64,000 nucleotides of DNA. Origin: a virus. Of the stretch, positions 26,245 to 26,333 are shown piece after piece. A program made the translations under genes and the position numbers. The stretch is taken from positions 32,001 to 96,000 of IMG/VR virus record IMGVR_UViG_3300035171_000016, one strand, 5' to 3'. Within the stretch, counting starts at the first letter, position 1. Each line of letters opens with the position of its first letter. A model generated the notes under the pieces. That model ran no database searches. It worked only from the letters and a program-made list of their open reading frames with translations, and was not told the DNA's origin.

Positions 26245-26333
26245 TGGTGGCGCGGTGAAAGTAACGCTCTTTTTGCTTAACTTCTCAACTATTTTAGCAA
26301 AGGTTTTACAGACCCTCGTTGAGGACACCGGCC
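26245..26333 (-). tRNA. Non-canonical tRNA-Tyr(GTA) with D-loop relocated 3' of the anticodon arm
   Basis: Anticodon loop CTGTAAA; CTCAAC (5' of the anticodon arm) is complementary to GTTGAG (3' of it); A73; CCA. Confidence 0.75.

Follow-up and report, generated by a model that had tools for sequence, protein, structure and literature searches.

A probable tyrosine tRNA gene of a phage tRNA array with a predicted D stem threaded across the anticodon arm, and its relatives in viral contigs and Verrucomicrobiales genomes

This report concerns a gene for an RNA with the anticodon GUA located in the window, a 64,000-nucleotide (nt) stretch of viral DNA that was analysed as a whole (positions 32,001 to 96,000 of IMG/VR virus record IMGVR_UViG_3300035171_000016). 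The gene occupies 26333..26245 on the minus strand and specifies an 89-nt RNA. Sequence comparison makes it nearly certain that the D stem of this RNA is built from two strands flanking the anticodon arm, that its core is a pseudoknot, that its acceptor branch has an 8/4 format (an acceptor stem of 8 base pairs [bp] and a T stem of 4 bp), and that this architecture is family-wide and is repeated in a second tRNA family. The rewired gene is still a tRNA, with a new topology, and its family is widespread and previously unannotated. It is likely, as a further step, that the gene encodes a tyrosine tRNA (GUA) whose re-threaded, pseudoknotted core works in translation.

The elements described in the initial annotation were found base for base in the window sequence. 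Only UCCUCAAC separates the acceptor strand from the anticodon arm; no D-arm hairpin is present between the acceptor and anticodon stems, and the pairing partner of the 8 nt located there lies 3' of the anticodon arm. The first 2 nt, UC (26324..26325, minus strand, as are all elements of the gene), stand in place of nucleotides 8-9; this connector is CC in most homologues and has a constant length of 2 nt in all homologues parsed by anchors (see below). It is followed by strand a, CUCAAC (26318..26323), the 5' strand of a long-range helix resembling a D stem. Strand a abuts the anticodon stem and forms 6/6 pairs with strand a', GUUGAG (26284..26289), which, as the initial annotation had observed, is its exact complement. 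Between these strands lie the anticodon arm (26299..26317; stem GAGGGU/ACCUUU, loop CUGUAAA, anticodon GUA at 26307-26309), strand b (GCU, 26296..26298) and an A-rich joining loop, AAAAUA (26290..26295), which in homologues is 5–14 nt long, again A-rich, and variable in sequence. Strand b and AGC at 26275-26277 (strand b'; 26275..26279 with the UA spacer that precedes it) are the 5' and 3' strands of a second helix, the counterpart of a variable-arm stem. The initial annotation had described AAGUUAAGC after GUUGAG as one D-loop-like segment: the sequence is present there, but it is not a single loop, being made up of AAGU (26280..26283), the spacer and a strand of the second helix. Three features go beyond that earlier description: the second covarying helix crossing the first, the 8/4 format, and a bulged C in the acceptor stem.

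Taken alone, the window copy is suggestive and not decisive. Its minimum-free-energy fold has CUCAAC/GUUGAG stacked on the anticodon stem, with a z-score of just -2.1, and two segments of 10 and 28 nt in one sequence are estimated to hold a perfect Watson-Crick match of 6 bp by chance with p ~0.03. The long-range pairing is settled by the homologues, which covary.

Homologues were collected with two patterns. Pattern 1, an anticodon hairpin joined to a T loop, was scanned over viral contigs and bacterial genome contigs. In the viral contigs it returned 63 loci, against approximately 1 expected by chance by our own estimate: about 50 have the exact layout and spacing of the window gene, 9 are Tyr tRNAs of the ordinary cloverleaf type that share its anticodon arm and its AGCGUUA T loop, and 2 look spurious. 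Pattern 2, derived from the 3' part of the main group with the anticodon arm left free, gave 73 loci in the viral contigs, 32 of them new. Both patterns fixed the T loop; pattern 1 also fixed the anticodon arm, and pattern 2 some of the AAGU motif as well as the T stem. Pattern 1 returned 29 loci from the bacterial genome contigs, mostly on large contigs of Verrucomicrobiales metagenome-assembled genomes (MAGs), bringing the loci of the same layout in these scans of viral contigs and bacterial genomes to more than 100. Other searches were less productive. BLAST of GenBank phages (50,697 records) with the window gene and a main-group member gave chance matches or none, and no cultured phage in that set carries the rewired gene. 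An exact 31-mer of the window gene had no match, and the two flanking proteins, used as queries, found no relatives among the viral contigs.

A MAFFT alignment split the a' strand into two registers and was replaced by an anchor-based parse and model-based alignments. The anchor parse ignores complementarity: a is taken as the 6 nt before the 6-bp anticodon stem, and a' as the 6 nt before the conserved AAGU. The model-based alignments used a covariance model with which 54 distinct genes, phage and chromosomal, were aligned.

Covariation of CUCAAC/GUUGAG in homologues had been named beforehand as the test capable of overturning the proposed pairing, and it was found. With complementarity unused in the parse, a and a' pair at 6/6 positions in 31/31 distinct phage genes, with multiple Watson-Crick types at 5/6 positions. 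Across the 54 genes there are 28 distinct complementary strand combinations, among them CUCAAC/GUUGAG, CCGGUC/GAUCGG, CCCUAC/GUAGGG, CACUAC/GUAGUG, CCACAC/GUGUGG, CUCAUU/AAUGAG, CCGGCC/GGCCGG and CCGGAU/AUCCGG. The helix is fully paired in 45 of the 54, with exceptions only at the end adjoining the anticodon stem, and double compensatory changes occur at 5/6 of its pairs. Over the whole alignment, 95.3% of paired cells are complementary compared with 77% after shuffling (0/500 shuffles equalled the observed score), and the figure falls to 32–59% when the partner is slid by 1–3 columns. Double changes, on both sides, are seen at 23/28 pairs overall, including all 4 pairs of the second helix, although b/b' is absent from the covariance model. 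That helix is GCU/AGC in the window and GGCA/UGCC, ACUC/GAGU, ACCU/AGGU, GUCU/AGAC, GUCC/GGAC, CCU/AGG, CCC/GGG or GUC/GAC in homologues; it is 3–4 bp long, extends from the end of the anticodon stem to just short of the T stem, and encloses GUUGAG. The strand order a, b, a', b' makes the two helices cross, and the core is thus a pseudoknot. The acceptor helix (8 bp) covaries at 8/8 pairs and the T stem (4 bp) at 3/4, and the 8/4 format, 12 bp in total, is found in all members. AAG follows a' in 54/54 genes, as AAGU in 31/31 phage genes and as AAGU, AAGC or AAGG in the MAG copies. In the 32 homologues obtained with pattern 2, the pair closing the anticodon loop has flipped in a compensatory manner from U-A to A-U.

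A second family repeats the arrangement. The Arg(CCU) gene of the window (18025..17946, minus strand) is likewise without a D hairpin and has six viral homologues (L116-L121). Its layout is a 7-bp acceptor stem, UA, a 5-nt connector, the anticodon arm, 2–4 nt, a strand of 3–4 nt, UAAUUGGA and following nucleotides, and a normal 5-bp T arm with the loop UUCGACU. The connector and the post-anticodon strand covary (CAC/GUG, CGG/CCG, CGA/UCG, CAG/CUG and CUCU/AGAG, with AUG/CAU in the window), and the Arg-CCU gene is, as predicted from these pairings, the class-I version of the same strand swap.

Both families bear on a different reading, a D-armless tRNA of the mitochondrial type, in which the 10 nt after the acceptor strand would be unpaired and a long variable hairpin, GCUAAA/UUAAGC, would form. 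The window gene can indeed form 5/6 pairs of this hairpin, and the window Arg-CCU gene has a strong local hairpin (8 bp) at the same place. Among the Tyr homologues, however, just the outer 3–4 pairs of the variable hairpin are conserved, and its supposed loop holds GUUGAG, the very strand that covaries with the 5' connector, in 28 combinations; the minimum-free-energy fold already favours the long-range helix. The Arg hairpin fares no better, since it is not conserved among the six homologues while the Arg long-range helix covaries. We give the D-armless reading hardly any credence.

How the re-threaded core would be arranged can be proposed by comparison with canonical tRNA. Since residues 22-25 normally run into the anticodon stem, strand a would take the place of 22-25 and a' that of 10-13. 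Helix a/a' would then stack on the anticodon stem, uninterrupted on the 5' side, to make up 6+6 pairs and stand in for the D stem. GCU/AGC would be the class-II variable-arm stem, with the 5' strand of the D stem and the D loop shifted into the variable-arm loop, and the net change would be an internal circular permutation of the D/anticodon domain. The covarying stem of 3–4 bp sits at the variable-arm position, and its loop is tied into the D-stem equivalent. In yeast tRNA-Phe the core contacts are 8-14-21, 15-48, 9-23-12 and 10-25-45. Because segments 8-9, 14-15, 21-22 and 44-48 meet in the tRNA core, the re-threading is sterically plausible.

The relocated AAGU is proposed to be a D-loop remnant, in which the invariant AAG would act as D-loop residues 18-19 facing the T loop (A18-G19 equivalents opposite G55-C56). 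The T loop is AGCGUUA with G55, as first read by the initial annotation, which had also held that conventional tRNAs of this array with G55 carry A18-G19. In a survey of 591 distinct conventional tRNAs from related phage arrays (the window array and L003-L065), this association holds statistically: the D loop has AG without GG, typically as (A/U)AGU, in 13/18 tRNAs with G55-C56, compared with GG in 556/560 tRNAs with U55-C56. These counts suggest that an A18-G55 contact replaces G18-Psi55 in G55 tRNAs. G55-C56 is present in all rewired Tyr genes, which fits the assignment of AAG to residues 18-19, although the match is not a covariation test because both elements are invariant within the Tyr family. 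The Arg-CCU family has a U55 T loop together with GG in the relocated loop, and this is consistent with the cross-family pattern expected if the relocated loop contacts the T loop.

The ends and the anticodon of the RNA are those of a tyrosine tRNA. The acceptor 5' strand GGCCGGUG (8 nt, 26326..26333, G1 at 26333) pairs with the 3' strand CACCG(C)GCC (26249..26257); in the window copy, 8 pairs are reached in one register only, which needs one bulged C, at 26252. As in canonical tRNAs, the acceptor stem is followed by A and CCA (discriminator A73 and encoded CCA, 26245..26248), and the 7-nt anticodon loop (C-U-G-U-A-A-A) has U33 and a purine at 37. A connector AA and the T arm (26258..26274) have a 4-bp stem, AAAG/CUUU, and the loop AGCGUUA (A54 G55 C56 G57 U58). 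An intron or a gene-level permutation was considered and rejected: the termini are those of an ordinary acceptor stem, and no pathway is known in bacteria that would rearrange a segment inside the RNA. The identity set of bacterial tyrosyl-tRNA synthetase (TyrRS) consists of A73, G34, U35, G1-C72 and a long variable arm. The window gene carries A73, G1-C72 and the anticodon GUA. Across the family, G1-C72 is found in 48/54 genes, the A discriminator in 31/31 phage genes, and the CCA end in 29/31 phage genes; GUA occurs in every member, including all 32 homologues found with the anticodon unconstrained (loop CUGUAAA in 32/32), and the 7-nt anticodon loop with U33 and A37 and the 12-bp acceptor/T branch are also kept. 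The presence of G1-C72, A73, GUA and a long variable-arm equivalent leads us to infer that host RNase P and TyrRS would process and charge the rewired tRNA, which would then decode UAY for the phage.

The setting of the gene points in the same direction. The source record (147,760 bp, approximately 30% G+C) contains phage-type replication genes (a DnaB-like helicase, a UvsX-like recombinase, ribonucleotide reductase and homing endonucleases), and the window includes a tRNA array at 17561-26908 of approximately 34 co-oriented minus-strand genes, all encoding CCA, that covers 19 amino acids, excluding Tyr. No other Tyr tRNA was found in the whole 147,760-bp record. The initial annotation's view of the gene as the sole Tyr tRNA in an otherwise complete set is therefore borne out, and the pattern recurs in independent arrays: Tyr is uncalled by ARAGORN in 14/14 loci with at least 19 called tRNAs, and it is the only amino acid missing from the ARAGORN calls in L004, L005 and L025. 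This recurring 19-plus-1 pattern is the strongest argument that the rewired RNA is the Tyr decoder of these sets, in which it would supply the sole isoacceptor otherwise missing from the phage array. No phage-encoded TyrRS was found, which implies charging by the host.

Several points weigh against a working tyrosine tRNA with this core. Since the search patterns fixed the T loop, anticodon arm, T stem and AAGU, their conservation is partly a matter of ascertainment. The tertiary assignments (AAG as residues 18-19, and the L-shape) draw on invariant residues, without support from covariation within the family. The bulged C at 26252 of the window copy is seen in no other gene of the 54 aligned and could impair TyrRS, elongation factor Tu (EF-Tu) or RNase P. 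The window copy is also the most divergent phage member after L020, scoring 83 bits against the covariance model compared with 85–107 for most others. Finally, L013, L042, L096 and the complete Verrucomicrobiales chromosome G014 each hold a normal class-II tRNA-Tyr besides the rewired gene. In such cases the rewired form is not the only Tyr decoder, and it could have another role.

The bulge and the low score for a phage copy could be explained if the family is real and the window copy is decaying or non-functional, with the phage relying on host tRNA-Tyr. The window T stem, of four A-U/G-C pairs with just one G-C, would agree with decay, and one chromosomal copy (L103) does look degenerate, with 2 a/a' mismatches and no CCA. 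Yet the window copy has each of the five helices intact and a/a' Watson-Crick at 6/6 positions, and it keeps AAGU, the T loop, A73 and CCA. The sequence is far from that of the GC-rich main group and still preserves every pairing, which indicates selection on the fold and not decay. A modified 8/4 format with one bulged nucleotide moreover has a precedent (PMC5389517). We consider decay of the window copy improbable.

Coexistence with normal tRNA-Tyr bears on another possibility, that the RNA mimics tRNA-Tyr and acts outside translation. It might be a decoy for, or an inhibitor of, a nuclease or modification enzyme that targets tRNA-Tyr, or it might have a regulatory role as a ligand of TyrRS; its acceptor end and anticodon loop would be kept as bait, leaving the core free to change. 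Its core is indeed non-canonical and pseudoknotted, and depletion of tRNA-Tyr by retron-Eco7 PtuAB is a documented defence that is countered by phage tRNA-Tyr (PMC11555353). Against a mimic, the rewired gene is the only one bearing GUA in most large arrays and the sole filler of the Tyr gap in three arrays and the window phage, and a decoy would not need the 12-bp branch, G1-C72, A73, CCA and the 7-nt loop with U33 and A37 all to be kept. We judge a mimic unlikely, though less so than decay, and retain the interpretation as a tyrosine tRNA that takes part in translation. The suggestion in the initial annotation that the rewired form resists tRNA-Tyr-directed defences is speculation, albeit reasonable given the activity of PtuAB and the countermeasure just described.

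In a model-based survey, 14/121 Verrucomicrobiales genomes have one strong rewired copy each, located in accessory tRNA arrays; this count is a minimum, since scoring was limited to 36 candidates per genome. The rewired Tyr genes L095-L105 (from G001-G003, G007, G014, G032, G056, G073 and G121) lie in dense tRNA clusters on large bacterial contigs. Their T loops vary (AGCAUUA, CGCAUUA and CGCACUA) and G55-C56 is kept. On the complete chromosome G014, the normal class-II tRNA-Tyr is at 4.12 Mb and the rewired copy is elsewhere, in a cluster of approximately 14 tRNAs. The idea that the rewired gene is the native sole tRNA-Tyr of Verrucomicrobiales was rejected for G014, the one chromosome checked, where the normal class-II copy is present. 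Coexistence with a normal Tyr gene and the clustered position of the copy indicate that the rewired form is a trait of accessory or mobile tRNA sets and not of the host core set. Long accessory tRNA arrays are known from Verrucomicrobia and other phyla (PMC8421152).

Standard tRNA finders miss these genes, as the initial annotation had predicted. ARAGORN made no call on the window gene at the default or the 80% threshold, and it called 0 rewired genes in the approximately 50 viral loci that hold one. Rfam gave no match for the window gene at E<=1, and none on the homologue L004 even at E<=10 (301-nt search). A consensus promoter scan found none directly upstream of the window gene.

The array itself can be compared with the closest relative found, the ENA contig L002. 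This contig encodes an AAA ATPase that is 65% identical and is syntenic on both sides, but it is without the whole tRNA array: homologues of the window open reading frames 27749-28441, 16683-17144 and 27466-27786 are adjacent in L002:13472-14929 (window span compared, 17144-27466). We take the array to be an insertion or accretion of approximately 10 kb on this basis. With the array missing there, L002 gave no comparative data for the rewired gene. Many neighbours of the Tyr gene in the array are odd in their own right, with G55 T loops and departures from class (22882-22970, 23228-23318, 25574-25746 and 18449-18533, minus strand): Asn(GUU), of 89 nt, and Met(CAU), of 91 nt, have long variable arms, and three Leu tRNAs (approximately 85 nt) have no variable-arm hairpin but extra nucleotides following positions 8-9. 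Directly 3' of the CCA of the Tyr gene (26166-26244, minus strand) is a canonical-looking T arm, UUGG-UUCAAGU-CCAA, without a matching acceptor 5' strand and uncalled by any tRNA finder. At the distal end of the array (16441-16691, minus strand) Rfam weakly matches archaeal RNase P RNA, with 18.3 bits (E=0.1), which falls far short of the gathering score. The tRNA-Ala(UGC) gene (26560-26637, minus strand) is approximately 79% identical to genes annotated as "tRNA-Pseudo-TGC" in Yersinia phage fHe-Yen9-04 and "tRNA-OTHER" in Pectobacterium phage My1.

Some practical consequences follow from the family. Annotations of phages and arrays that report 19 of 20 amino acids with Tyr missing are probably incomplete, and tRNA finders need a pseudoknot-aware model. 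The rewired scaffold is a candidate for orthogonal tRNA engineering, and protection by re-threading against tRNA-directed immunity, of which retron-Eco7 PtuAB is one example (PMC11555353), becomes directly testable. If the RNAs are charged and decode, they would be the first natural tRNAs in bacterial cells with a different strand topology, and TyrRS, EF-Tu, RNase P and the ribosome would be reading overall shape rather than connectivity. A broader and more doubtful possibility, which we put forward tentatively, is that core-permuted, pseudoknotted elongator tRNAs (at least two families) form a general class that functions in bacterial translation and escapes host tRNA-directed defences. Phages and mobile tRNA arrays would maintain them, the re-threaded D/variable core evading nucleases while TyrRS or ArgRS, EF-Tu, RNase P and the ribosome accept it.

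Unusual tRNAs known from the literature include 8/4 and 9/3 tRNAs, tRNA-Sec, tRNA-Pyl and armless mitochondrial tRNAs. A D stem formed across the anticodon arm was not described in the literature searched, from which subscription journals were outside coverage, and a 2024 paper presents all known bacterial tRNAs as cloverleaves (PMC11551756). The closest parallel in format is provided by the allo-tRNAs. Mukai et al. (2017; PMC5389517) report the 8/4 format for allo-tRNAs and for phage and bacterial tRNA-Ser and tRNA-His, and describe allo-tRNAs of this format as active in Escherichia coli translation. Allo-tRNAs resemble the rewired Tyr RNA in their 8-bp acceptor and 4-bp T stems, 6-bp anticodon stem, 6-bp D-stem equivalent, long variable-arm element, occurrence in phage tRNA clusters, and a variant with one bulged nucleotide (PMC5389517). 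The dimensions of 6+6 stacked pairs are also found in tRNA-Sec as well as in allo-tRNAs. The D arm of allo-tRNAs is, however, described there as an ordinary hairpin, a long stem with a tetraloop, and the molecule is still a cloverleaf (PMC5389517), whereas in the rewired Tyr RNA the entire anticodon arm comes between the two strands of the 6-bp helix, and the core is pseudoknotted. The identity differs as well: the rewired RNA is Tyr (GUA, A73), and Tyr is absent from the 8/4 species reported there (PMC5389517).

With bacterial class-II tRNA-Tyr, such as the housekeeping gene of G014 (L112), the rewired form shares G1-C72, A73, the loop CUGUAAA, an extra helix in the variable region and the encoded CCA. 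The class-II tRNA is 7/5, with GG in its D hairpin and the T loop UUCGAAU; the rewired form is 8/4, lacks the D hairpin, combines AAG with AGCGUUA, and has a variable stem that encloses a D-stem strand. Closer still are the conventional Tyr tRNAs with the AGCGUUA loop (L021, L037, L043, L048, L062, L076, L080 and L082, from phage and Verrucomicrobiota), which have the same anticodon arm and T loop and whose D loop has AAAG instead of GG. They differ in being 7/5 cloverleaves whose D hairpin is normal and whose class-II variable arm is short, and they score 22–33 bits against the rewired model. These tRNAs are probably the ancestral stock of the rewired form. Six of them (L021, L037, L043, L076, L080 and L082) have in common an A.G or G.A mismatch, purine against purine, at acceptor pair 7-66, and these six are usually missed by ARAGORN, L037 alone being called.

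D-armless mitochondrial tRNAs, such as nematode and mammalian mitochondrial tRNA-Ser, also have no hairpin between the acceptor and anticodon stems and are missed by finders, but an unpaired loop replaces the arm, and the molecules are shorter, flexible and in need of adapted factors (PMC7609411). The rewired Tyr RNA is of full size (89 nt), and its connector forms part of a 6-bp helix that covaries. The last comparison is with tRNA genes whose segment order departs from the canonical one, a property that the rewired gene shares. In the permuted tRNA genes of Cyanidioschyzon merolae and the split tRNAs of archaea the reordering is at the level of the gene, and it is undone by splicing and circularisation into a normal cloverleaf. 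The rewired Tyr gene, in contrast, starts with the acceptor 5' strand and ends with ACCA, and its internal permutation would persist in the RNA.

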